Source: an uncultured Atribacterota bacterium
GTDB taxonomy: Bacteria > Atribacterota > Phoenicimicrobiia > Phoenicimicrobiales > Stramentimicrobiaceae
NCBI GenBank assembly: GCA_964433635.1
Contig: CAYSSG010000007.1
Coordinates: 1,609 to 65,608 of the forward strand
Direction: 5' to 3'
DNA length: 64,000 bases
This document shows, piece after piece, positions 1 through 25,984 of this stretch. Position 1 is the first letter of the stretch. Every line of letters begins with the position of its first letter. The notes beneath the pieces are model-generated. The model was not told where the DNA came from. It worked only from the letters and a program-made list of their open reading frames with translations, and ran no database searches. Made by a program: the position numbers and the translations under genes.

Positions 1-1188
1 GGTATCAAAAAAGCAGGAACCAATAATCCTGTGTTTATACTAGATGAGGTGGATAAACTATTAGCCTCTAATATGGGAGACCCGGCTAGTGCATTACTGG
101 AAGTGCTGGATCCTGAACAAAATAATTCGTTTTCAGACCATTACCTGGAAGTACCCTATGACTTATCTGATGTATTTTTTATTGGGACAGCAAATTCCCT
201 GAGGGAAATTCCGGAAGCGCTTAGAGATAGAATGGAAATCATTCAGATTCACAGCTATACGACGACCGAGAAATTTCATATCGCAAAAGGACATCTGATT
301 GATGAAGTTTTAGAAAATCATGGCCTTACACCTGAGCAATTCAAAATAGAAGATAATGCCATAAAGGCGATTATAGATAAATATACCCGGGAAGCGGGAG
401 TTAGAGGGATTAAAAAGCAATTATCAGCGATCGCCAGGCATGCAACAGAAAAGATTATCGTTGATGAGGTGAAAATTCCTTATACCGTCAAGGAAGAAAT
501 GCTATTTGATATTTTAGGACCCGAAATATCCACTTATGATAAAGTTAAGAAATCAAATCCGCCAGGGGTCGTTACCGGATTAGCCTGGACACCTGTTGGT
601 GGTGATATTTTATTTATCGAAAGTGCTTTTATGCCGGGAAAAGGAGAGTTAATGCTGACAGGGCAATTAGGTGATGTGATGAAAGAATCAGCTAAAATAT
701 CCCAGAGCTTGATCAGGTCCAGATTGTTTTTGAGTTTGGAGGATAATCATTTTGAAAAACATGACCTTCATATTCATATACCACAGGGCTCGATACCCAA
801 GGATGGTCCGTCTGCCGGAGTGACTCTATTTATATCAATAGCCTCTCTGTTTACCGGAATTCCGGTAGATGCCAAAACTGCCATGACCGGCGAGATATCT
901 TTAAGGGGAGCAGTGCTTCCTGTTGGAGGCATTAAAGAAAAAGCCATAGCGGCACATCGTTCCGGTATTAAAAAAATTCTTCTTCCTGCGGAAAATAAAA
1001 AAGACCTTTGTGAGGTTCCGGAGGAAATAAAGAAAGATGTTCAGTTTATTTTTATCGAAACCATAGAGGAATTATTACAAGAGACCTTAGGAATTAAATT
1101 GCCAAGGGTTAGCGAATTTCACTTTTACATTCCGGATAAAAATGTGGTGAGGACTGATAAAGGATTTGTGAAAGTTATAGATAATTAG
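1..1188 (+). CDS. lon: ATP-dependent Lon protease, C-terminal part (5'-truncated by the window edge)
   Basis: The translation carries the Lon S16 proteolytic domain motifs ([20 protein letters not shown]...DGPSAGVT...[38 protein letters not shown]) and an upstream AAA+ lid segment. The ORF runs from the window start in frame 1. Confidence 0.9.
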
Positions 1189-1271
1189 ATAAGAGGAAAG
1201 GGGATGTTTAAATTTTCCAAACCCATCTATCCCCCGGTGGTTGATGGTATAGAGAGGCTTAGAAATTTCTA

Positions 1272-1300
1272 TTGACGAAACAAGGGAAGAGATTTATAAT
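1272..1300 (+). promoter_or_regulatory. Sigma-70-like promoter: TTGACG, 17-nt spacer, TATAAT
   Basis: TTGACG lies at 1272-1277, a 17-nt spacer follows, and TATAAT lies at 1295-1300. This is about 20 nt upstream of the riboswitch aptamer. Confidence 0.5.
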
Positions 1301-1317
1301 AAAATCACAAAAATTGA

Positions 1318-1436
1318 ATAGGTGAGTCATTAAGTTGATAAAGGCAAACTATCCGAAAGGATAGGGCGCAAAGTCATGGGTCTAAGGCTATAAAAAAATG
1401 CTAGGACTGCCAGATTGCCAGCTTTTTTTATTTTTG
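1318..1436 (+). ncRNA. c-di-GMP-I (GEMM) riboswitch with a downstream U-tract expression platform
   Basis: The sequence AAAGGCAAACTATCCGAAAGGATAGGGCGCAAAGTCATGGGTCTAAGGC matches the conserved GEMM-I core: GGCAAAC, a P2 hairpin with a GAAA tetraloop (CTATCC-GAAA-GGATAG), the GGGxGCAAAG junction, and GGGTCTAAGG (P3 tetraloop-receptor region). A T-run follows at 1423-1435. The element lies in the leader of the 1794..4472 gene. Confidence 0.7.
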
Positions 1437-1793
1437 AAAACTGAAAATTATGAGGCTTTACAAACTTACTATTTGAGGAGGATACTCCCATGGATAAGGT
1501 AAGTAAAGTCTTTAAATAACGAATTCAATATTGGATTTCTTAAATCCTTGCTCTTTTTAGTTTCAATCATTTGCAGTAAGAACATTCCCGTAAATGTTTC
1601 ATTCCAATCCTACCAAGAATCATTCAATATTCATTCCACGTTTATCCTTTCTGTTCAAGTTCCTTTAATGTTATGGAAGTAAAGAAGTCTTAAACAATTT
1701 TCATTGCCATTTAAAAGGAAGTGATTCTGTATGAAGCATCTATCGTCATGAATCTGCCTGATCAACCAAATAAATCAATAGGAGGATAGAAAA

Positions 1794-4472
1794 ATGGTTG
1801 ATAAAGAGAAAAGATTATTCATTTTCGGCAATATAAAGGGTAAAGAGGGTGAAAAAGCCCTTGCTGGCTTAACGGTGGAAGCTCTGGATCAAAATCTTTT
1901 GGTAGACAAGCGTTTACGCAGCACAACAACGGGGCAGGATGGCAGTTTTGAAATTTTCTTTACAGGAAAAAAGGTCGAAGAAATCTTTCTTGATCAGAAG
2001 CCTGATATCTATCTAAGAATAAAAAACCAGATGGGAGAAGTAATCCATGTTACTGAAAATAAGGTTCGGTATGAACCTGCAGGAGGAAAAGCGTGTCAAA
2101 TTCGCATTCCGGAAGATCTACTTGAGAAGGCAGCAGTAGAGGTCGAACGATCACAGTTCAAACGATTTCTTTCCATCAATCCGAATTACTTTGGAAATGT
2201 GATAGATGAAAAGATGAAGGCCATTCATCCAGCCATTTATCCTATTTCGAAAAAGACCAAATACGAAGAATTATGCTGTGTGGGATTGTATCCTGAAGAT
2301 AATCTGCTGGAAGCGGTGCTGGAAGTCAAACTGCCTTTTGGTTACAATGGTTCGCTCTGCACAGCGGGAAGCAAAGAGTATGTCTCCTTTTATATCGATT
2401 ATAACGACGGTAGCGGTTACACAAGTACCGGGGCAGCTGTTGCGGTGAATGTCCATAACTTCTCTTCTGTAAGCGGAGGACATCTTTTTTATGCAGTTCG
2501 AAAACCATTTACTCCCAAAGCATATCTGAAGTGCGATCAACCACAACTCGTTAAAGTGAGGGCTATTCTTTCCTGGGAAAAACTGCCTCTTGGTCCTGAC
2601 TTTATCCCGGTGTGGGGTAATGTTCTTGATTCCTGGGTTCAGATCAAACCAAAAAAAACCTGGCCTTTTGTCATGCCTATTCCTGCCTATGAATTCAAAC
2701 CTTTGGAAAAAATGGAAGACCTTCAGACATCCACAAACATAGTGCCTGAGGCTGTTGAAGCCATGATTCCATATGCTGAAAAATTGATGATGATCGGTGG
2801 TCAGGATGAAATGAAGGATCTGTTAGAAAAATCAATGAAGGCCGAAAAGAGGGTAAAAGAAGAAGGAAAGGTAGAAAAAGAGAGGTTTGATTTTAAACAG
2901 TGCATCAGCAAAAATCCCAATTATTTTGGCGCGATCAGTGAATCAAAAGATAAAGACAAGGTAATGAAAGCATTATATGATTTGCCACCAAAGACGATCC
3001 AGGATTTGCTTCCCAAAATAGCAATTGATCCTGAATGGCTCGTCCCGGTAAAACCATTGTTAGTCAATACCAAATATGAAGCATTGCGCTGTGTCGGCTT
3101 TCATCCCGAGGATGATCTGCTGGAAGCAATCATCGAGATTAAACAGCCCTACGGTTTTAATGGAGACCTGTGTACCTTAGGCAGCAAGGAGTATGTCGTC
3201 TTTTATATTGATTGGGGAGACGGTTCTGGTTTTCAGCATGTTGCCACGGCAACAGTAGGCGTTCACGACATCCCTGCAATCAACAGTCAACATCTGTTTT
3301 ATGCTGTGAAAGCGAATATAACCTCCAAACCGAAGGAATGCACAATTGAGAATATCGTCAGGGTAAGGGCAATACTTTCCTGGAACCAGGATCCCACACC
3401 TTTTGGTCCAAACTATAACCCGGCATGGGGAAACATGCTGGAAAGAGATATTCAAATAAGACCAAAAGACGGGGCAAGCGTCCAATGCGAGATTGAAATT
3501 GTCAATGAAGTTCATGCAGATGACATCAGTTCATTCGGCAGCAGTAAAGGACTTGCCGTGAAAATTGATTCTTCGAATCATGCTGTTGCAGGAACTTTTG
3601 ACAGGCCATTTGGAGGCATTATTGGGTGCTGGGGAAAAATCAATGTTCCAGGTGCCCACTATTATCGATTCCGCTACAGTGATGATAGTGGCCTATCCTG
3701 GAAAAATATTACCGATAAAAGGATAGCAAGAAATCCCCTTCCCTGGATTTCAACCATCGAACGATACCCGGATTTAGAAGGATGGTTCAGTATCAGTGAC
3801 TATCAGGTTGATGTGGCAAATTATTCGTTGAGCGCATTGGTACATTGGGATAGTTCCGGGAATAATGGAGATTACCTACTGCGACTTGAACTGGGCGATG
3901 CAGGAAAGAATTTACTACCCGGGCAAAGCGCGGAAGCCCCTGTTCGTTTAGACAACAAAGGGATTGACCTCTTTGAGTTTGGAGGCACCCCCACACCTCT
4001 GCCTGCAGAAGGAGTCGTGGTTAAGGATAGCGCCAATCATTACCGGAAATGCGACACATTTAATGGGGATGAAGCGATTAATATTTTCGGCAACTTCAAG
4101 GATGATTATTTCAGAAACTTCGTTCTGACAGTGTTTGGAGGAAATATTGCGGTTTCCGGAGTTGCATTTGGTTCCGGAAGATATGATTCGGGGATTTTTG
4201 ATAAAGATGGTAATCCGCTTCCAGCCCTGAGTGGACATATCAATGATAAAGGCATAACCTTCGCAGCCGATGGTGGAATGGGGCAGGAAATAGGGACCCT
4301 GAATTTATGTACCATTTCTCAGTCTCCCGGTCAAGTAAAATGTGCCTACGGGATCAAACTGACGGTTTGGGATAGGGCAATTGTCGGCTATATCAGAGGG
4401 TATGAATTTGACACTACGTGTCATGGAAGACATGCTTATGTCACCTTTGACTGGGATCCAGTCGGTTGTTAG
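1794..4472 (+). CDS. Large hypothetical protein (892 aa) with an N-terminal transthyretin/carboxypeptidase-regulatory-like segment and an internal tandem duplication of ~246 aa, no signal peptide
   Basis: Long ORF with a GGAGG RBS at 1781-1785. The two repeat copies (~aa 120-365 and ~366-610) share NPNYFG...KYE(E/A)L.CVG..PED.LLEA..E.K.P.G.NG.LCT.GSKEYV.FYID..DGSG...HLFYAV...VRAILSW. The N-terminus (FIFGNIKGKEGEKALAGLTVEALD...TTGQDGSFEIFF) resembles a CarbopepD_reg/transthyretin fold. Confidence 0.8.
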   Translation: MVDKEKRLFIFGNIKGKEGEKALAGLTVEALDQNLLVDKRLRSTTTGQDGSFEIFFTGKKVEEIFLDQKPDIYLRIKNQMGEVIHVTENKVRYEPAGGKACQIRIPEDLLEKAAVEVERSQFKRFLSINPNYFGNVIDEKMKAIHPAIYPISKKTKYEELCCVGLYPEDNLLEAVLEVKLPFGYNGSLCTAGSKEYVSFYIDYNDGSGYTSTGAAVAVNVHNFSSVSGGHLFYAVRKPFTPKAYLKCDQPQLVKVRAILSWEKLPLGPDFIPVWGNVLDSWVQIKPKKTWPFVMPIPAYEFKPLEKMEDLQTSTNIVPEAVEAMIPYAEKLMMIGGQDEMKDLLEKSMKAEKRVKEEGKVEKERFDFKQCISKNPNYFGAISESKDKDKVMKALYDLPPKTIQDLLPKIAIDPEWLVPVKPLLVNTKYEALRCVGFHPEDDLLEAIIEIKQPYGFNGDLCTLGSKEYVVFYIDWGDGSGFQHVATATVGVHDIPAINSQHLFYAVKANITSKPKECTIENIVRVRAILSWNQDPTPFGPNYNPAWGNMLERDIQIRPKDGASVQCEIEIVNEVHADDISSFGSSKGLAVKIDSSNHAVAGTFDRPFGGIIGCWGKINVPGAHYYRFRYSDDSGLSWKNITDKRIARNPLPWISTIERYPDLEGWFSISDYQVDVANYSLSALVHWDSSGNNGDYLLRLELGDAGKNLLPGQSAEAPVRLDNKGIDLFEFGGTPTPLPAEGVVVKDSANHYRKCDTFNGDEAINIFGNFKDDYFRNFVLTVFGGNIAVSGVAFGSGRYDSGIFDKDGNPLPALSGHINDKGITFAADGGMGQEIGTLNLCTISQSPGQVKCAYGIKLTVWDRAIVGYIRGYEFDTTCHGRHAYVTFDWDPVGC

Positions 4473-4525
4473 TTTTTTTAATCGGTATTACGGACAGATT
4501 TCATTACATCGGAAAGGAGATCATA

Positions 4526-4770
4526 TGGGAAAGGAAGAGATGAAATTACCGGATTTAAGTCAAGTGGAGTTTTTGTCTAAATCCTATTTACCAAGGGAAT
4601 GGGTGATGGACCCCCCTCCATTTGTGTGGTGGAAAATTAGAGATGAGGTGTTGGTCAATGTTCTTCAAACCAAAGTGAAATATCTTGCCAAACTTTCGAA
4701 GCTTGAAGCGCAGGCAAAGGAGATCGAAGGACAGATGTACGAAGAAATTGCCCAACAGATGGGAAAATAA
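4526..4770 (+). CDS. Small hypothetical protein (~81 aa)
   Basis: An ATG at 4526 follows a GGAAAGGAG RBS. The six-frame ORF starts further upstream at 4381 but that portion overlaps the 3' end of the preceding gene. No recognisable domain. Confidence 0.4.
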
Positions 4771-4871
4771 AAGTAAATTGATGATTCGTAACAGCTAAGT
4801 CAGAATCAGAATATGCATTCTAAAAATAACGATGTTGAGTCTGTCCGTAATACTCAATCTGGAGACTTTTT

Positions 4872-6440
4872 ATGAAAGAAAAACCTGTTATCTTTGTTGC
4901 TTTTCAAGAACAGGACAATCTGGGGATCGGCTATCTCTCATCAATGCTGATCCAGGCCGGGTTTCCAATTAAAATCATTGATTTTCGTGACGGTAAAGAA
5001 GAGATACTAACCAATATTCATCTGCATCAACCCATAGTAGTCGGTTTTTCAATTATATTCCAGTATCACATTCATGATTTCAAAGATTTACTACAATATT
5101 TGAGAGACCAGGGGGTCGATTGTCATTTCAGTGCAGGAGGACATTATCCCAGTTTAAGGTATCAAGACCTGTTAACAACGATTCCTCAGCTTGATTCGGT
5201 TGTATTATTTGAAGGGGAATATACCTTTCTTGCATTGGTAAAATCGATCTATGCCGGTAAGGAATGGAAACATATTCCAGGAATTGCCTATGGAGAGAAC
5301 GGTTTTCATATTGCCAATCCCCTGCGGCCATTGGAAGAAAATCTTGATAAGTTCCCCGTTCCGGTCCGCCGTCCCTTGCGGGAATATGTTCTTGGAAAAA
5401 AGTATGCCACAATTTTGGCGGGACGTGGGTGTTTCTATCATTGTTCATTCTGTAGTATAAGAGAGTTTTATTCCCGTCCTACCGGTCCAATAAAACGGTT
5501 GAGAAATCCTGAAATGGTGGTGCGGGAAATGGAGTTGTTGCTTAAGCAGATGGATGCTTCTATCTTTATGTTTCAGGATGATGATTTTCCGGTTGCCGGA
5601 AAGATCGGGATTGAGTGGAGTAAGAGATTTTGTGAAGAATTAAACAAAAGAGGATTACGTGAAAAAATATTATGGAAGATCAATTGCAGACCGGATGAAG
5701 TGGAACTGGATACATTTAAACGCATGAAAGATACAGGTTTATTCTTAGTTTATCTGGGCATTGAATCCGGGACCGATGAGGGTTTGCGTCTTATGAATAA
5801 AAAGATGAAAGCTGAAACCAGCCTGAAGACAGTTTATCTGCTTAAAGAGCTCGGTATTCATTATGACTTCGGTTTTATGCTCTTTGATCCGTCCAGCACT
5901 TATCAATCCATTTCGGATAATCTTGATTTTTTAGAGGAATTATGTGGTGATGGTTCTTCCCCTATAACGTTTTGTAAGATGCTTCCCTATGCGGAAACGC
6001 AGATTGAATATCAATTAAGAAAAGAAGGGAGATTAAAAGAGAAGGCCGGGTATATGGATTATGAATTTTATGATCTTTCACTCAATCATTTTTACGATTT
6101 CATCAAGGATTGTTTTCGGGAGTGGATTACAGACCATGAGGGATTGCTCAATATCGCCAGATGGGCAAGATATCATGCACTGGTCTATCAAAAATATTTT
6201 CCGAATTCCCCACAATTTGACGATTTACAAAAAACAATCACTGCCGTTATTGCCGAAAGCAATCTATTCTTTATCCATACATGCAGGAAAGTGATTAATC
6301 CGTTTAATGTCCCTGATGCGGGAAATTGTGATTATAAGAGTTTAGTAAAAGTAAAAGCGGAAGTAGATCAAAAGCACCTGGAATATCAATTGAAACTGCG
6401 TCATTTGATAAAGAATTTAGAAACGTTTGGGAGCTGCTGA
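4872..6440 (+). CDS. B12-binding domain radical SAM protein (class B radical SAM)
   Basis: N-terminal cobalamin-binding-like Rossmann segment (VIFVAFQEQDNLGIGYLSSMLIQAGFPIKIIDF) followed by the CxxxCxxC radical SAM motif (GRGCFYHCSFCSI). 522 aa. Confidence 0.85.
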   Translation: MKEKPVIFVAFQEQDNLGIGYLSSMLIQAGFPIKIIDFRDGKEEILTNIHLHQPIVVGFSIIFQYHIHDFKDLLQYLRDQGVDCHFSAGGHYPSLRYQDLLTTIPQLDSVVLFEGEYTFLALVKSIYAGKEWKHIPGIAYGENGFHIANPLRPLEENLDKFPVPVRRPLREYVLGKKYATILAGRGCFYHCSFCSIREFYSRPTGPIKRLRNPEMVVREMELLLKQMDASIFMFQDDDFPVAGKIGIEWSKRFCEELNKRGLREKILWKINCRPDEVELDTFKRMKDTGLFLVYLGIESGTDEGLRLMNKKMKAETSLKTVYLLKELGIHYDFGFMLFDPSSTYQSISDNLDFLEELCGDGSSPITFCKMLPYAETQIEYQLRKEGRLKEKAGYMDYEFYDLSLNHFYDFIKDCFREWITDHEGLLNIARWARYHALVYQKYFPNSPQFDDLQKTITAVIAESNLFFIHTCRKVINPFNVPDAGNCDYKSLVKVKAEVDQKHLEYQLKLRHLIKNLETFGSC

Positions 6441-6616: not shown

Positions 6617-6645
6617 TTGACATATCAATCTTAACAATATATAAT
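6617..6645 (+). promoter_or_regulatory. Consensus sigma-70 promoter: TTGACA, 17-nt spacer, TATAAT
   Basis: TTGACA lies at 6617-6622, a 17-nt spacer follows, and TATAAT lies at 6640-6645. This is 30 nt upstream of the GGAGGA RBS of the DGQHR gene. Confidence 0.55.
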
Positions 6646-6674
6646 TGGAATACAAAATTTGGAGGACTAAGAAA

Positions 6675-8021
6675 ATGGGCTTGAGAGTTACGGGTGTAAG
6701 ATTTAATCAGCATGATATCGAATTTTTAATTGGTTTTGCCAAGGCTGGAGACCTCTTAAGACAAAGCAGGACCGATGAGTGGAGTCCTACCAATTCCAAA
6801 GGTTACCAGCGAGAGATTATCGAAAGAAGGGCAAAAGAATTTGGCAATTTTGTTGCTAAAAACGGGATATCTCCCAATGCCGTTTTATTAAATATCAGGG
6901 ATGCGGATATGAATAGCATCAAGAGAATTACGGAAAATGTATTCGAGGTTCCCGCAGATATACCACTGTGGATTGTCGACGGGCAGCACCGGTTAAAAGG
7001 CTTAGCGTATGCCGGGGAAAACCATCCTGAACTTCTGGATATTAATATCCCCATTGTGCTGATGAACTTAAAATCCCGCGATCCGGATTTGGCCAGAAAC
7101 CAGGAAGCTACCCAGTTCCTTATTATTAATAAAACCCAGAAAGGAGTACGTTCTGATTTAGCCGAACGTATTCTGGCTCAAGCCGAAGAAATAAATAAAC
7201 AGTATGAAGATCTGGACATACCAACCTTTTTAAGAAGAGGCAGATCAGATATGAATCAAAAACAGATAGCATCCAAGATAGAAGAAACCAGGAAAGAGAA
7301 TATTCCCCAATATAACAGAGAGAGTTTCAAAAAGAAAGATGCAATAGAATACAGTAATGAAGCCTATGTGGATTATCAAGAATATAATCATTCGACTACA
7401 CGCGATGATACCAGACAGAATATCCTTCCCAGTAACCTAAAGAGGGAATTGCGCTGGAAACCCCGGGCAGTCCGCATTTCTGATGCCTTGAATAACCGCC
7501 CGGATTCTCCGCTGCAGGGTAGAATGAAATTACCCAACGCTCGTCCCCGGGGTACCACCTTCAGCCAGGTCTCCATGGTCAGTTCGCTGAAAAATGTCTT
7601 AAGTGCAGCTCCTTTTTCTCGTTTAAGCGATGATGAACTGGCTTCCGTTCTGATCAATTTTTGGAAGGCATTTAAAGCGCTTTGTCCGGAACCCTTCCAG
7701 GAAGTGGAAAGAAAACAGAGGGCTGATGATTATGTGCTGCTGAAAACCACAGGAATATTTGTCATACCCAAACTATTAGTGGGAATTGATCCCTATCTTC
7801 CACGGAAACAAGGGATGGCTATCTATACTGTTGAGATCTTCAAGCAATTCTTGTCCCTTGCTGGTGAGCTGATGAAATCCAGCTTCTGGCGTTCAGCAGG
7901 CCTGGGGACTGCCGGTGCCTTTGGGACTGGCCAGAAGAGTTTTTCCCATATCGCCCGGATGATGATCAAACAAATGATCACGAAGGGAGATGATCAGGGA
8001 AAGCAAAAGGTGATTCTATAA
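6675..8021 (+). CDS. DGQHR domain protein (DndB-like)
   Basis: The literal motif DGQHRLKGL sits in ...IPLWIVDGQHRLKGLAYAG... The start at 6675 has RBS GGAGGA 8 nt upstream. The in-frame ATG at 6645 sits inside the -10 box and is rejected. Confidence 0.8.
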   Translation: MGLRVTGVRFNQHDIEFLIGFAKAGDLLRQSRTDEWSPTNSKGYQREIIERRAKEFGNFVAKNGISPNAVLLNIRDADMNSIKRITENVFEVPADIPLWIVDGQHRLKGLAYAGENHPELLDINIPIVLMNLKSRDPDLARNQEATQFLIINKTQKGVRSDLAERILAQAEEINKQYEDLDIPTFLRRGRSDMNQKQIASKIEETRKENIPQYNRESFKKKDAIEYSNEAYVDYQEYNHSTTRDDTRQNILPSNLKRELRWKPRAVRISDALNNRPDSPLQGRMKLPNARPRGTTFSQVSMVSSLKNVLSAAPFSRLSDDELASVLINFWKAFKALCPEPFQEVERKQRADDYVLLKTTGIFVIPKLLVGIDPYLPRKQGMAIYTVEIFKQFLSLAGELMKSSFWRSAGLGTAGAFGTGQKSFSHIARMMIKQMITKGDDQGKQKVIL

Positions 8022-8045
8022 TCTATTATGAGGAAGTGAAAAGTG

Positions 8046-9035
8046 ATGGAAACGATAATCAGCAATTTTATTGCACAGATCCGCTTTGGAGAGGTAGTAA
8101 GTTTTCAGAATATGCAGGTCATTCCTCTTTTTTCGGGTCAAAAAGAAGATCTGGTGTACTTAACTTTAAAAGAGGCCCTGGAAAAAAGGTATTTATTGAT
8201 ACAGGAGGTCAGTAAGGGAGGTTCGGTGCCGGATCTGAAGGTGACTAATCAGGCAGATATTCCAGTACTGCTCCTGGATGGAGAGGAGTTAGCGGGAGCC
8301 AAACAGAACCGGGTATTAAATACCACCATCCTGGTACAGGCAAAGTCAGAAATGATCATCCCGGTCAGCTGTACCGAGCAGGGCAGATGGTCTTATAAGA
8401 CCAATCATTTCTATGATTCTGAAATTGTTTCTCCTGTTTTCCTGCGAGCCAGGAAAGCCTCTTCTATAAATGCTTCCTTAAAGCAGAACAAGACATTTTG
8501 CTCTGACCAAGGTGCTGTCTGGGATAGTGTGGCTTTCTTAAGAAATAAAGCGAAAGTTGAGTCAGCGACCGGGGCGATGAAGGATGTCTTTGAACAGAAA
8601 AAGGAGACTCTGGAGGACTATATCAAGGCCTTCAGGCTCGTGCCTTCCCAGAGGGGAATCCTGGTCTTTGTGGATGGTGAGGTTGCAGGATGGGATATTC
8701 TCTCTCGCGGGGAATCTTTTCAGGTACTGTTTCCCAAGCTGATTAAGAGTTATGCCATGGATGCCTTAATCAAAGATCAGAAAAAGATTATCCTTTCCCG
8801 GAATCCTGAAGAGGAAGCCAGGCTTTTTTTGGAGGGAATAAAAGATTGCCGGGAAGAGAAATATCCTTCTACCGGGTTGGGAGAAGATTTTCGCTTTGAG
8901 GGTTCGGACAAGGTCGGCTCGGCACTGGTAGTTGAGAAGCAGGTCATTCACATGGCCTTTTTCAGGATGAATAAGGAAGAACAGACCGGCCGGATGTCCG
9001 GGTATGAAAGAAGAAGAGGATACCGTATCTACTAG
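8046..9035 (+). CDS. Conserved hypothetical protein, partner of the DGQHR gene
   Basis: It starts 24 nt after the DGQHR stop, with GAGGAAG upstream. 329 aa with no recognisable catalytic motif. Same strand and orientation as the DGQHR gene, implying co-transcription. Confidence 0.65.
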   Translation: METIISNFIAQIRFGEVVSFQNMQVIPLFSGQKEDLVYLTLKEALEKRYLLIQEVSKGGSVPDLKVTNQADIPVLLLDGEELAGAKQNRVLNTTILVQAKSEMIIPVSCTEQGRWSYKTNHFYDSEIVSPVFLRARKASSINASLKQNKTFCSDQGAVWDSVAFLRNKAKVESATGAMKDVFEQKKETLEDYIKAFRLVPSQRGILVFVDGEVAGWDILSRGESFQVLFPKLIKSYAMDALIKDQKKIILSRNPEEEARLFLEGIKDCREEKYPSTGLGEDFRFEGSDKVGSALVVEKQVIHMAFFRMNKEEQTGRMSGYERRRGYRIY

Positions 9036-9196
9036 CGTCCCATATAAAATATTTAATCCGGGCTATTTAATTGATTGTTACCGTTATCATTTTGGTTTTT
9101 ATTTTCAATAGGATTCCATAGAAGATAGGGCAATAGAAGATGTAAAATGGTGCAGGGATTCTGTTAACACAATAACTAGAAAGAAGGGTAGAACAG

Positions 9197-10390
9197 ATGA
9201 ACAAATATAATTTTGATCAGATTATCTCACGAAAGGGTACGTACAGTGCTAAGTGGCAGGGATATGAGAGGAAGTTCCCCGGCTATGATGTGGAAGGTGC
9301 CTTGTGCATGTGGGTAGCAGACATGGATTTTCTCTGTCCCGAAGAGGTCATTTCAGCTGTCGTCAACAGAGCAAAGCATGGTATCTATGGTTACACCTCA
9401 GAAGATGCCGTTGATGCATTTAAAGAGGCAGCTTCCGGCTGGTTTGCCAGGCATTATGGGCTGAAAACAAATGTTGAGTGGATGCTATTTATAAGCGGAG
9501 TTGTCCCATCGATCAATGCGGCTATTCAGGAATTTACTGAACCGGAAGATGGTGTGATCATACAGCAGCCTGTTTATTATCCTTTTAACGAAGCGATCAG
9601 AGATTGCGGCAGGACGATCAGGGTGAATCAGCTTATTGAGAAAGATGGCTATTATGAAATGGATTTTGAAAACCTGGAGAAATTGGTAAAGGAAGAGAGA
9701 ACCAAACTGATCATTTTATGCAGCCCTCATAATCCGGTTGGGCGGGTTTGGACAAAAGATGAGCTCATTCGCCTGGGCAGGATTTGCTGTGAAAATGGTG
9801 TTTTAATCTATTCTGATGAGATTCATGCCGATTTTATCATGAAAGGGAGTAAATTTGTTTCTGCAGGAACCCTGTCTGCTGATACCACTGATAACCTCAT
9901 TTTATCCTTTGCTCCCAGCAAAACATTTAACATAGCCGGCCTGTGTACCTCTGTTATTGTTATTCCGAATAAGAAGATCAGAGAGCGAATGAAAAAGAGA
10001 ATAACAATGAACAGCTACCCTGACGCTAATGTATTTGGCCCCATTGCAGGAGAAGCTGCCTACCGCTATGGTGATGACTATATAAAGGAATTAAAAGAGT
10101 ATATCGAATCAAATTTTGATTACGCAGCAGCATATAGTAAAGAATATCTGCAGGGAATAAGAATAACAAAGCCCGAAGGAACTTATCTGGCCTGGGTGGA
10201 TTTTAGAGATACCGGGATGAGCAACAAAGAGATTAATTCCTTTGTATTGGAAAAAGCAAAGATAGCAGTAGACCCCGGAGAGTGGTTTGGTGCCGGAGGG
10301 GAAGGATTTATCAGAATGAATTTTGCCTGTCCCGAGTCCATGGTAGACGAAGCCATGGAAAGATTAAAAAAAGCACAGAACTATGTCTGA
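9197..10390 (+). CDS. PLP-dependent C-S lyase / aminotransferase class I-II (PatB/MalY family, cystathionine beta-lyase-like)
   Basis: Aminotransferase fold motifs, a PLP-lysine context (SFAPSKTFNIAGL) and a PatB/MalY-like N-terminus (KWQGYERKFPGYDVEGALCMWVADMDF). Confidence 0.85.
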   Translation: MNKYNFDQIISRKGTYSAKWQGYERKFPGYDVEGALCMWVADMDFLCPEEVISAVVNRAKHGIYGYTSEDAVDAFKEAASGWFARHYGLKTNVEWMLFISGVVPSINAAIQEFTEPEDGVIIQQPVYYPFNEAIRDCGRTIRVNQLIEKDGYYEMDFENLEKLVKEERTKLIILCSPHNPVGRVWTKDELIRLGRICCENGVLIYSDEIHADFIMKGSKFVSAGTLSADTTDNLILSFAPSKTFNIAGLCTSVIVIPNKKIRERMKKRITMNSYPDANVFGPIAGEAAYRYGDDYIKELKEYIESNFDYAAAYSKEYLQGIRITKPEGTYLAWVDFRDTGMSNKEINSFVLEKAKIAVDPGEWFGAGGEGFIRMNFACPESMVDEAMERLKKAQNYV

Positions 10391-16341: not shown

Positions 16342-18959
<2,618 letters not shown>

Positions 18960-19229: not shown

Positions 19230-19305
19230 GGGGATATAGCTCAGTTGGGAGAGCGCTGCGTTCGCATCGCAGAGGCCAGGGGTTCGAATCCCCTTATCTC
19301 CACCA
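19230..19305 (+). tRNA. tRNA-Ala (anticodon CGC), CCA encoded
   Basis: The cloverleaf was read by hand. Acceptor GGGGATA/TATCTCC with the G3:U70 Ala identity pair; D-arm GCTC-AGTTGGGA-GAGC; anticodon stem CTGCG/CGCAG with loop TTCGCAT; T-arm AGGGG-TTCGAAT-CCCCT; discriminator A followed by CCA. Confidence 0.9.
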
Positions 19306-19707
19306 GAAATATAATAGGGTTAGATTCTCAACCTTAAATAATTTGAGATGAGGTCTGGCCCTTTCTCTTTTTTGTGTCAGGGGACAGGTACGTGACACAC
19401 GTGACACACAAGGGCACAGGCTTTTGTAAGGATCATTCTTCCGGTTTTAGTATCATATATTATAGTGACCGTGATTATGTCTTTATAATCTTCCGGAATA
19501 AATACGTTTATACAGTCATGTTGTCAATAAAGCTGATCAAATAATACCTATTGCCTGAAAAAATTTGATTGGTCAACTATGTGTTAAATGCTGGATGTTA
19601 ACAGCTGGCTGGATTATAATGATGATACCGTTGGGTATCAGGTTCTTCTTTATCCAAAAAAGTTTAATGGAAGATCTTGCCGCAGGTACAGTAAAGGGAA
19701 AATAAGA

Positions 19708-20853
19708 ATGATTGAAAGAATGACATCAAGAGAACGTGTGTTAAAAGCGTTGAATCATCAAGTCACTGACCGTATCCCGATTGATTTTGGTGGTACGGCC
19801 AATACCAGTATTGTAAAAGAAGGTTATGACAGGCTAACAAAATATATTGGACTGGAACAAGGTAACATTGAATTCATTGACACAATGATGAGATCTGTCA
19901 GGGTAGCCGAAGAAGTGCAAGAATACTTTGAAACAGATTTCAGAGGTGTTTTCCCGCCGAGATCTTTACCGATTAAATGGTTAAACAGTAATACTTATAC
20001 TGACCAATGGGGTATTGAGTGGACAAAAAAGGAAGATATATTTTATTATGAACAGGCAAATTATCCACTAGCCGGTGACATAACGGCGCAGGATGTATTG
20101 ACATATCATTGGCCAAATCCGCATGAAATTGACATCAGTGATGATCTGCATAAAAGAGTAAAAAAAATGAGGGAAGAAACAGATAAAGCACTCATATTGG
20201 ATTTACCTGCACCCATGATTCATACAACACAGTATTTACGCGGATTTGAAAATTGGTATATGGATTGTGCAAGTAATGTCAAACTGCTTGAGATCTTATT
20301 TGATACAGTCCTGGAGATCAACATCTTTATTGCTGAAAAAATTCTGAAACAGGCTGCCCAAGATGCTGATATCATTAAAATGGCCGATGATATCGGCATG
20401 CAGAATGGTTTGCAGGTATCACCTGATTTTTTCCGGAAATACATCAAGCCCAGATTTAAGAGATATACTGATTTAATTCGAAGATTTGCACCTGATACGA
20501 TCATACATTTGCATAGCTGTGGAAGTATCGAAATGATTTTAAAAGACCTGATTGAGATTGGCATCAATGCCATTAATCCTGTACAGGTTTCTGCTAAGAA
20601 TATGGATCCTAAAACTCTGAAGTCAAAGTACGGCAAAGATTTGAGTTTTTGGGGTGCGATTGATACCCAGAATGTATTGAATAGAATGAACGATGACGAA
20701 GTTCGAGAAGAGGTAAGGAAAACAATCGATATTCTTGGTGCAAATGGCGGATATGTCTTAAGTGCCGTGCATAACATTCAGCCGGATGTTCCACCGGAAA
20801 ATATTGTAGCGATGTTAGAAGAGGGCAAGAATTATAAAGGCTTCAGGGATTGA
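19708..20853 (+). CDS. Uroporphyrinogen decarboxylase (URO-D) family protein, MtaA/CmuA-like methylcobamide methyltransferase type
   Basis: URO-D-like N-terminus (MTSRERVLKALNHQVTDRIPIDFGG) and a family-typical C-terminus (SFWGAIDTQNVL...GGYVLSAVHNIQPDVPPENIVAM). Start taken at the ATG at 19708, which has a modest RBS. Confidence 0.75.
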   Translation: MIERMTSRERVLKALNHQVTDRIPIDFGGTANTSIVKEGYDRLTKYIGLEQGNIEFIDTMMRSVRVAEEVQEYFETDFRGVFPPRSLPIKWLNSNTYTDQWGIEWTKKEDIFYYEQANYPLAGDITAQDVLTYHWPNPHEIDISDDLHKRVKKMREETDKALILDLPAPMIHTTQYLRGFENWYMDCASNVKLLEILFDTVLEINIFIAEKILKQAAQDADIIKMADDIGMQNGLQVSPDFFRKYIKPRFKRYTDLIRRFAPDTIIHLHSCGSIEMILKDLIEIGINAINPVQVSAKNMDPKTLKSKYGKDLSFWGAIDTQNVLNRMNDDEVREEVRKTIDILGANGGYVLSAVHNIQPDVPPENIVAMLEEGKNYKGFRD

Positions 20854-24550: not shown

Positions 24551-24595
24551 ATTTTGACAATGAAGTCAAAAAAAATTCAAAAAGGAGAGAATATA

Positions 24596-25984
24596 ATGAA
24601 AAAAGTTATGCCACCTTACCGAATTAAAGTCGTAGAGCCTATTAAGTGGAATACTCGAGAAGAAAGGGAAAAAATCATAAAAGAGGCTGATTATTGCACC
24701 GGATTTTTAAAAGCAGAAGATATTCCTATCAACTTAGAGACAGACAGTGGTACTTCAGCAATGAGCCAAGATCAATGGGCAGGAATGATGCAGGGAGATG
24801 AATCCTATTTCTGCTGTAAAAATTGGTATCATCTGGAAAAGGCAGTCCAAGATTTTACTGGTTATAAATATGTGTTAGCCGCACATCAGGGAAGAGCAGC
24901 AGAGAACATCGTATGTTCATGCTTAATTAACGAACCAGGTGGATATACACCTGCAAATGCACATTTTGGTACAACCGAAGTACATGCCAGAAGATTGGGT
25001 ATAGAGCCAATTAATCTATATCCGGAAGAAGCTCTTGATACCCAAATCAATAGACCATTTAAAGGGAATATCGATTTAGATAAACTAGAAGATATGATTA
25101 AGAAAAGAGGAGCTAAGAATATCCCTTTCTTGAACATGGTTCTTACAAATAATTTCACCGGTGGTCAACCTGTTTCGATGGCTAATTTAAAAGAAGCTAG
25201 CAAAATAGCACGGAAGAATGGTATCAAGGTTGTCATTGATTCGGCCAGAGTAGCAGAAAATGCCTACTTTATTAAACATAGAGAGACCGGATATGAGAAT
25301 AAATCGATTCGGGAGATTTGTCGTGAAATTTATACTTATGGGGATATCATGCACATGAGCTCTAAAAAAGGTGCCCTTGTTAACATGGGTGGACTCATAG
25401 CAACAAACGATAAAGATCTCTATGAAAGAATGAGTGCCATGTTAATCCAATTTGAAGGTTACATTACTTACGGGGGATTATCCGGAAGGGACTTAGAAGC
25501 TTTAGCTATTGGATTGAATGAAGGTTTGGAATATGATTATTTACATCACCGTATTTCACAAGTAAAACTGTTTGGTGATCTACTTAGAGAAAAGGGAGTA
25601 CCTTTTTACGAGCCAGCTGGTGGACATGGCATTTATGTTGACGGATTAAAAACTTACCCCCATATTCCTAAAGAAGAATTTGCAGCCCAAGCACTATCTG
25701 TTCAGACTTATATTGAATCAGGAGTAATGGGTATAGAAAATCCTTCCAGCCTTGGATGGAGCAGAACGGATCCTGAAACAGGCAAGTTAACCTCTCCACC
25801 CTTTGAATTAGTTCGATACGCTGTTCCTCGAAGAGTCTATACGGATAGCCAGATAGAATATGCAGCAGAGGGAATCAAAGAAGCCATGGATTTAGGAGAA
25901 AAAGTGAAAGGGTTTAGAATCAAATGGGTACCAAAGAATGAATTCTTGAGGATATTCCAATATCGGTTAGAACGTCTAAGCTAA
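24596..25984 (+). CDS. Tryptophanase / tyrosine phenol-lyase family beta-eliminating lyase (paralogue 1)
   Basis: Closely resembles the TnaA/TPL consensus (PYRIKVVEPI...DSGTSAMSQDQWAGMMQGDESY...AAHQGRAAENI...FKGNIDLDKLE...NNFTGGQPVSMANL...RVAENAYFIK) with the PLP-lysine context MSSKKGALVNMGG. Start at the ATG at 24596, which has an AAAGGAGAG RBS. Confidence 0.85.
   Translation: MKKVMPPYRIKVVEPIKWNTREEREKIIKEADYCTGFLKAEDIPINLETDSGTSAMSQDQWAGMMQGDESYFCCKNWYHLEKAVQDFTGYKYVLAAHQGRAAENIVCSCLINEPGGYTPANAHFGTTEVHARRLGIEPINLYPEEALDTQINRPFKGNIDLDKLEDMIKKRGAKNIPFLNMVLTNNFTGGQPVSMANLKEASKIARKNGIKVVIDSARVAENAYFIKHRETGYENKSIREICREIYTYGDIMHMSSKKGALVNMGGLIATNDKDLYERMSAMLIQFEGYITYGGLSGRDLEALAIGLNEGLEYDYLHHRISQVKLFGDLLREKGVPFYEPAGGHGIYVDGLKTYPHIPKEEFAAQALSVQTYIESGVMGIENPSSLGWSRTDPETGKLTSPPFELVRYAVPRRVYTDSQIEYAAEGIKEAMDLGEKVKGFRIKWVPKNEFLRIFQYRLERLS

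Follow-up and report, generated by a model that had tools for sequence, protein, structure and literature searches.

The class-I cyclic di-GMP (c-di-GMP) riboswitches of Rfam family RF01051, including Vc2 of Vibrio cholerae and Cd1 of Clostridioides difficile, share a three-helix aptamer with a GAAA tetraloop on P2 and receptor-like CUAAG/UANGA sequences in P3, a ligand triad equivalent to G20, A47 and C92 of Vc2, a position in the 5' leader and a U-tract of the attenuator type. For such GEMM RNAs, a terminator that the ligand prevents from forming is an arrangement often described. The class-I riboswitches of C. difficile are transcriptional OFF switches that often control surface or adhesion proteins, among them the adhesion protein CD2797, PPEP-1 and flagella, or else small uncharacterised proteins (PMC11477304). 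Bc1 of Bacillus thuringiensis combines a class-I aptamer with an unusually long conserved expression platform, in which two discrete terminator hairpins lie about 220 nt before the start codon, and may be under mixed transcriptional and translational control (PMC11218506). Here we describe an element of this class in a 64,000-nucleotide stretch of DNA from an uncultured Atribacterota bacterium (contig CAYSSG010000007.1, positions 1,609 to 65,608; hereafter the window), where it precedes a gene for an 892-aa protein of an unnamed family. It has all the features listed above for RF01051, but differs from those riboswitches in a degenerate distal P3, in a P1 helix that abuts the U-tract without a separate terminator hairpin, in a leader that runs on for 370-590 nt in the window and its relatives, and in its host phylum. 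Our analysis suggests that this riboswitch, transcribed from its own promoter, probably controls a three-gene operon by transcription attenuation, with P1 serving as the terminator stem of an OFF switch.

A search of all Rfam families against the whole window found, on the + strand, a match of 67.1 bits (E 1.1e-13) covering 1334-1423 and well outside what chance would give, the sole other match in the window being a tRNA gene at 19230-19302 (70.7 bits); in a scan of 1200-1900, nothing apart from the aptamer came near significance. The top family was RF03167 (c-di-GMP-I-GGC), for which the gathering score is 59, and when the search was restricted to 1250-1500, a second family of clan CL00126 also exceeded its own gathering score at 1334-1423. 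An earlier note on this DNA, made from its letters without database searches, had proposed that a c-di-GMP riboswitch of class I lies between a promoter of its own and a U-tract, as in an attenuator, and had expected a + strand match to the RF01051 covariance model. The proposal was borne out, with RF03167 in place of RF01051 as the top family, and the sequences that had been cited for it were all in place, namely GGCAAAC (1343-1349), the P2 hairpin CTATCC-GAAA-GGATAG (1349-1364), GGGCGCAAAG (1364-1373), GGGTCTAAGG (1378-1387), the promoter and the U-tract (Table 1).

The 892-aa product has 598 detectable homologues, and loci from genomes and metagenomes, 94 in all, were compared, with homologues of 71-84% identity taken as close and those of 65% or less as distant. 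An aptamer was present at an equivalent position to the gene in all five close loci (window included) that had at least 600 nt of upstream sequence; the search for homologues that also sit behind GEMM riboswitches, suggested in the earlier note, had thus yielded four independent related loci, all assigned to RF01051 at 79-85 bits against a gathering score of 35. None of the 24 distant-homologue loci scanned with Rfam (L003-L007, L009-L021, L023-L025, L091 and L092, the last two carrying one identical gene) had an aptamer. A loose core-motif pattern run over the 94 loci matched, outside the close clade, L056 and L071 only. The match in L056 (Methanosarcina sp. T3; 2950-2978, + strand) lies about 2 kb upstream of the homologue and is probably due to chance, and that in L071, on the minus strand and inside the homologue gene, was also judged to be chance.

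A change in ligand specificity has been proposed for the variant class RF03167, and since this was the best-scoring family for the window aptamer, with a score above its gathering score, one could suppose that this RNA belongs to the variant class and senses a ligand other than c-di-GMP. The 'GGC' of the name, reportedly from Weinberg et al. 2017, would refer to the A47-equivalent position. Comparison of the cmscan consensus lines showed that the cores of the two families differ at one position, GACGC-A-AAG in RF01051 and GACGC-G-AAG in RF03167, located 27 nt 3' of the unpaired G that precedes P2; the window base there, A1370, is aligned ungapped and with top posterior probability opposite the conserved G of RF03167. 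The same spacing of 27 nt, which separates G1343 from A1370, is found between G11 and A38 of Bc1 and between consensus positions 11 and 38 of RF01051, and G11, A38 and C81 of Bc1 correspond to G20, A47 and C92 of Vc2 (PMC11218506). The ligand triad of the window therefore consists of G1343, A1370 and C1418, all of them canonical, and the predicted binding site is canonical as well. Moreover, the four closest relatives were called RF01051, and the window departs from them chiefly in the tip of distal P3, which is a variable loop in RF03167: the window has 3 bp and an 11-nt A-rich loop at 1386-1402, where a stem of 5 bp capped by a UUAAA-type loop is present in all four relatives. This degenerate stem probably explains the RF03167 label, as RF01051 models the stem and RF03167 a variable loop in its place. 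Although the overall architecture is identical to that of RF03167, the A at the defining A47-equivalent position led us to drop the variant identity, and a ligand other than c-di-GMP seems to us highly improbable. In riboswitches for c-AMP-GMP, an A reportedly replaces the G at the G20 equivalent; the window (G1343) and its four relatives all retain the G, which excludes this identity too. The c-AMP-GMP class (GEMM-Ib) has been described (PMC7266159). Read from its sequence, the aptamer is a canonical class-I (GEMM-I) riboswitch, for which binding of c-di-GMP is predicted.

Pairing was assessed on an alignment of the window, L001, L002, L008 and L093, five closely related sequences that make a small sample for pairing and covariation. 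With an explicit aptamer structure, 93.7% of cells were paired over the five loci, indicating that the conserved P2 and P3 pairings can be folded, and three compensatory pairs were seen, in P2 and distal P3; when the 3' partners were slid by 1-3 columns as a control, 32-44% of cells were paired. P1 consists of the pairs A1332-U1424, A1333-U1423, G1334-C1422, U1335-G1421, U1336-A1420 and G1337-C1419, three of which vary on one side among the loci (U-G to U-A). It runs directly into the U7AU5 tract, whose CTTTTTTT stretch is invariant in the five loci, and its 6 bp form the only conserved helix abutting that tract. No separate conserved terminator hairpin was found upstream of the U-tract, where local folds of 30-60 nt were weak and not conserved. 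Further downstream, GGAUUUCUUAAAUCC at 1533-1547 was considered as a second terminator-like hairpin and rejected, with 72% of cells paired and the structure lost in L008 and L093.

Because P1 adjoins the U-tract and is kept in all five loci, and because there is no separate conserved terminator hairpin, we lean towards an OFF switch in which the ligand-stabilised P1 is itself the terminator stem. Binding of c-di-GMP would stabilise the six pairs of P1, the ligand-bound aptamer would act as the terminator hairpin, and P1 together with U7AU5 would stop transcription near 1430-1435; at low c-di-GMP, P1 would be unstable and the polymerase would read through the 370-nt leader into the operon. Such premature termination at a class-I aptamer would resemble the OFF riboswitches of C. 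difficile.

The same aptamer could follow another logic, with the ligand blocking a small terminator to which P3 and P1 contribute their 3' strands, which would give an ON switch, or acting on a translational or Rho-dependent step in the leader. A candidate for the terminator exists, as a 4-bp hairpin, AGCC(N8)GGCU (about -4.9 kcal/mol), lies just before the U-tract in L001, L008 and L093 only and overlaps the P3 and P1 3' strands; in addition, a CU-rich stretch can pair with the main Shine-Dalgarno (SD) sequence in 3-4 of the five leaders, and an adhesin-like product would more naturally be induced at high c-di-GMP. However, the hairpin is very weak and has been lost in the window and L002 through G-to-A substitutions that preserve P1 pairing, and for the leader RNAalifold yields no convincing conserved fold, the energy over 593 columns being -14.9 kcal/mol and the covariation term unfavourable. 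We therefore consider an ON switch or other logic on this aptamer possible but unlikely.

The OFF switch would act on transcripts from a promoter that matches 11 of the 12 consensus positions, is the best promoter-like site within 1100-5000 and has both hexamers kept in L001, L002 and L008. The leader, put at about 600 nt in the earlier note, measures about 490 nt from promoter to ATG, with 370 nt from aptamer end to ATG (400-589 nt for the relatives), and six further loci share its conserved 3' part as far as their contigs reach. It contains two blocks, each with an SD-like element, a start codon at normal spacing and then a very short open reading frame (ORF). The start codon of block 1 is kept in four of the five loci and its peptide sequence is not conserved; the SD and ATG/GTG start of block 2 are kept in all 11 loci covering the site, its mini-ORFs having 3-11 codons and again no conserved peptide. 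These blocks may be mRNA stabilisers (STAB-SD-like), upstream ORFs shielding the leader from Rho, or a translational layer of control. The long conserved expression platform is shared with Bc1, but in place of the two discrete terminator hairpins of that RNA there is one U-tract directly after P1, followed by the two SD/mini-ORF blocks.

A weak promoter-like site, TTTACA-18-GATACT (1457-1486, 9 of 12 positions), overlaps both block 1 and the most conserved block of the leader, CTTTA.AAACTTAC.ATTT..AGGAGGATACTCC (1456-1488). The riboswitch might thus be largely uncoupled from the operon, yielding a small RNA of about 125 nt that ends at the U-tract, while a second promoter in 1440-1790 mainly drives the genes. 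There is precedent for this, since class-I riboswitches of C. difficile prophages have a stronger second promoter downstream (PMC11477304). At this locus, however, the candidate -10 hexamers (GATACT, GACACT, GGTACT and GATACC) are poor and variable, and the aptamer keeps to this gene cassette alone and accompanies it through different genomic contexts, so that we regard uncoupling as improbable.

Several observations weigh against the P1-terminator OFF switch, which we nevertheless prefer. P1 closes a three-way junction and is an atypical terminator stem, so that the OFF logic is read from anatomy alone; a consensus terminator scan called no compact GC-rich hairpin before the U-tract; and the reduced distal P3 of the window, with its short stem and long A-rich loop, could weaken folding of this aptamer. 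The conserved SD-like blocks and the weak promoter-like site mean that extra or alternative control may exist. With regard to the wider circuit, no c-di-GMP-metabolising gene was found in the 64-kb window (GGDEF, EAL, HD-GYP and PilZ motifs were sought), and an adhesin-like role for the 892-aa protein conflicts with the missing signal peptide in this copy.

As judged from gene order, the controlled unit is a conserved three-gene operon and not the single gene that had been supposed. The order large protein, 81-aa protein and B12-binding radical S-adenosylmethionine (SAM) enzyme was found in every close locus with downstream sequence; in the window the operon spans 1794-6440, with intergenic gaps of 53 and 102 nt. 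Upstream, the window has Lon, L001 has Fpg/Nei and L008 has a region with a group II intron, and the genes downstream of the cassette vary between loci as well; the same promoter, riboswitch, leader and genes amid differing neighbours indicate that these form one cassette. A separate, perfect promoter precedes the next gene in the window, which is DGQHR/DndB-like and is not kept at the other loci; this promoter marks the 3' limit of the riboswitch operon. Clustering of 719 neighbour ORFs from the 94 loci showed that the wider family shares generic receiver domains only, the pair of 81-aa and radical SAM genes being confined to the clade at 71% identity or more. Group II intron domains occur near the cassette in L008 (1637-1810) and near the homologous gene in L011 (8798-8872), which fits a neighbourhood rich in mobile DNA.

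The host had been described in the earlier note as Clostridia-like, but the fragment of Lon encoded at 31-1188 shares 93% identity with a protein from an Atribacterota metagenome-assembled genome and 89% with another Lon, for which one source gives Actinobacteria and another Candidatus Atribacteria, the next named lineages being at about 70%. L008, which has the same cassette, was also binned as Atribacterota, and the GC content of the clade is 34-41%, so that the Clostridia-like label does not hold.

The 81-aa protein shows 60-91% identity between loci and 84% mean column identity. Its family comprises 28 clusters in 5.8 billion sequences, every one at least 60% identical, which indicates that it is private to this cassette. 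Neither it nor the 892-aa protein had a match in PADLOC or PHROG, where no known anti-phage or phage assignment was obtained. The third gene, 78-90% identical between loci, encodes B12-binding (E 6.6e-16) and Radical_SAM (E 5e-18) Pfam domains with CxxxCxxC in the translation. It falls in no curated NCBIfam subfamily, the best scores, to BchE, ApyD, HpnJ/R and PhpK, being at most 113 bits against cut-offs of 480-750, and searches of PADLOC and PHROG gave only a weak generic radical SAM match, PDC-M51A, at 25 bits. In having an N-terminal B12-binding domain and a CxxxCxxC core, and in lying next to candidate substrates, it resembles class B radical SAM modifiers such as the MCR glutamine C-methyltransferase, ApyD and the methylases of ribosomally synthesised and post-translationally modified peptides (RiPPs). 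In contrast to those systems, its scores stay far below the subfamily cut-offs, the 81-aa neighbour is uniformly conserved with no variable core, and the operon holds three genes only, without a protease or transporter; the 81-aa protein as a RiPP precursor and the cassette as a RiPP cluster were both rejected on these grounds. Speculatively, the most plausible role for the enzyme would be post-translational modification of either the large protein or its 81-aa neighbour. Another radical SAM gene of the B12 type, 31% identical to the third gene, was seen about 600 nt downstream of a 33%-identity homologue of the large gene in L037 (Nitrospinae; 7132-9324), which could be a coincidence or an older association.

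The ORF of the 892-aa protein was confirmed, as were its lack of a signal peptide or transmembrane segment (maximum 19-residue Kyte-Doolittle value 1.56) and its duplicated unrecognised domain; the repeat unit, however, is about 175-200 aa and not 246, and the C-terminal region, which had been put at about 250 aa, measures about 330 aa. No sequence-profile match to the protein was found in Pfam, NCBIfam, PADLOC, PHROG or PDB. The transthyretin-like beta-sandwich proposed for the N-terminus is a candidate assignment, with TTR-52 at 20.2 bits, under the Pfam cut-off of 24.9, and CarboxypepD_reg at E 0.13. The two repeats are 45% identical (BLASTP, E 4e-56), and each begins ER..F......NPNYFG and carries three conserved Cys residues. 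According to its AlphaFold2 model (mean predicted local distance difference test score 75, reaching 85-95 in the C-terminal third), the protein is almost all beta, a predicted chain of immunoglobulin (Ig)-like beta-sandwiches. Its top structural neighbours are multi-Ig-like surface proteins with beta-sandwiches arranged as beads on a string (RbmA, Bap, SiiE, PrgB, pilins and S-layer proteins), but the 892-aa protein has no sequence similarity to them, the TM-scores do not reach 0.2, export signal and anchor are both missing from this copy, and the NPNYFG and Cys pattern conserved in the repeat is peculiar to it.

Repeat 2, used as the query of an exhaustive HMMER search, gave 752 clusters (50% identity) among 1.84 billion representatives, almost always with two or three matched stretches in proteins of 700-880 aa; the sequence matches thus describe a family that is coherent, moderately rare and of fixed architecture. 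It ranges over many bacterial phyla and the Methanosarcinales, Bathyarchaeia, Promethearchaeota, Nitrosopumilales and Halobacteria, and identities of 50-60% across domains point to horizontal transfer. The N-terminal module is swapped within the family, which shows the transthyretin-like domain, a ComEA-type helix-hairpin-helix (PF12836), no domain at all, or a Sec signal peptide immediately before repeat 1; this last form, in which a signal peptide of the classical Sec type replaces the N-terminal domain, was seen in 24 of the 119 top homologues. Thus the cytoplasmic appearance described in the earlier note holds for this copy and does not extend to all of its close relatives, and the conserved core is probably, by its sequence features, an extracytoplasmic-type module. 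Nearly all members end W-D/N-P-x-G-C, optionally followed by one to four prolines, and the terminal Cys is conserved. Outside the riboswitch clade the gene is solitary, without conserved neighbours. In a clade at 63-65% identity that lacks the riboswitch, the large gene adjoins one for a DUF6345 protein (L003, 3186-4037; L091, 5714-6517; L092), and in L091 it also adjoins a gene for a trypsin-ricin lectin protein; these partners differ from those of the cassette and may be informative.

These data bear on the idea, put forward in the earlier note, that the 892-aa protein is a cytoplasmic effector of second-messenger signalling that itself binds c-di-GMP. The protein is under predicted c-di-GMP control and has neither signal peptide nor transmembrane segment, as such an effector might. 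However, no PilZ, GGDEF, EAL or other known c-di-GMP-binding module was found in it, and most relatives are without a riboswitch; export in a fifth of the relatives, the Ig-like fold and the conserved Cys residues further weaken the idea. We therefore regard the protein as a regulated target and not a receptor, and give the effector role very little chance. With low confidence, we suggest that the protein is structural or adhesive and non-enzymatic; speculatively, such a role would be the most likely one in place of a signalling function, and the 81-aa protein would be its partner.

Table 1. Positions of the riboswitch, leader, operon and protein features in the window, and of the aptamers in the four related loci (positions within each locus)
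Feature	Position	Strand	Basis or remark
Sigma-70-type promoter TTGACG-17-TATAAT	1272-1300	+	11/12 consensus positions
c-di-GMP-I aptamer including P1	1332-1424	+	Rfam match and pair counts over five loci
P1	1332-1337 with 1419-1424	+	Paired in 5/5 loci
P2	1344-1369	+	GAAA tetraloop 1355-1358; structure on five-locus alignment
P3	1372-1416	+	Structure on five-locus alignment
U7-A-U5 tract	1423-1435	+	Read from sequence; putative termination point
Leader block 1	1477-1519	+	GGAGG (1477-1481) in hairpin GGAG-GAUA-CUCC (1477-1488); mini-ORF 1490-1519, MDKVSKVFK-stop
Leader block 2	1715-1751	+	SD-like AAGGAAGTGAT (1715-1725); mini-ORF 1731-1751, MKHLSS-stop
Ribosome-binding site AGGAGG and ATG of gene 1	1780-1796	+	Read from sequence; invariant in all leaders
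Gene 1, 892-aa all-beta protein, unnamed family	1794-4472	+	ORF confirmed
Gene 1 product, putative transthyretin-like domain	residues 1-105		
Gene 1 product, repeat 1	residues ~115-290		
Gene 1 product, disordered linker	residues 289-336		
Gene 1 product, helical arm	residues 337-416		
Gene 1 product, repeat 2	residues ~420-560		
Gene 1 product, two further beta-sandwiches	residues 561-892		Ending ...WDPVGC
Gene 2, 81-aa protein	4525-4770	+	Motif W.MDPPPF.WW, C-terminal amphipathic helix
Gene 3, 522-aa B12-binding radical SAM enzyme (class B)	4872-6440	+	Pfam domains; cluster motif CFYHCSFC
Perfect promoter TTGACA-17-TATAAT of next gene (DGQHR/DndB-like)	6617-6645	+	3' limit of the riboswitch operon
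L001 aptamer	1510-1597		Gene start 1997; RF01051, 81.8 bits
L002 aptamer	193-280		Gene start 803; RF01051, 79.4 bits
L008 aptamer	4275-4362		Gene start 4951; RF01051, 85.4 bits
L093 aptamer	72-159		Gene start 683; RF01051, 85.4 bits

Beyond the operon, the genes for a DGQHR-domain (DndB/DpdB-like) and an ARPP-1 domain protein (6617-9035) look like a small defence-type pair. The window also encodes the KatG catalase-peroxidase (16764-18959; 1348 bits), an MtaA/CmuA-like methyltransferase (19588-20853) and tryptophanase (24554-25984), and its remainder is dominated by ABC, TRAP and MFS transporters.

Among the top 10 of 788 two-term matches listed by a full-text literature search, which was not exhaustive, no paper linked Atribacterota with c-di-GMP riboswitches. 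The riboswitch itself is of a known class and adds nothing new to RNA biology; it is the cargo that is uncharacterised. Riboswitch-linked genes of unassigned function have repeatedly opened new biology, and this cassette, with one promoter, one aptamer and three genes, is compact and hence easy to test in a heterologous host. We put forward, as a tentative and doubtful proposal, that the cassette could be an unrecognised c-di-GMP output, in which a beta-sandwich scaffold, matured by the B12 radical SAM enzyme and joined by the 81-aa partner, would do its work with no classical export signal, perhaps as part of the cell surface, the matrix or an intracellular lattice. If this were true, the family of about 750 clusters would as a whole gain its first functional handle through the riboswitch. 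In the uncultivated subsurface phylum Atribacterota, the riboswitch is a signpost that ties an uncharacterised, horizontally mobile protein family to a lifestyle switching controlled by c-di-GMP. No Pfam model covers this family, whose members are spread over many phyla of bacteria and archaea and are exported in some lineages but not in others; the 81-aa protein private to the cassette and a new subfamily of B12 radical SAM enzymes would be tied to the same process.

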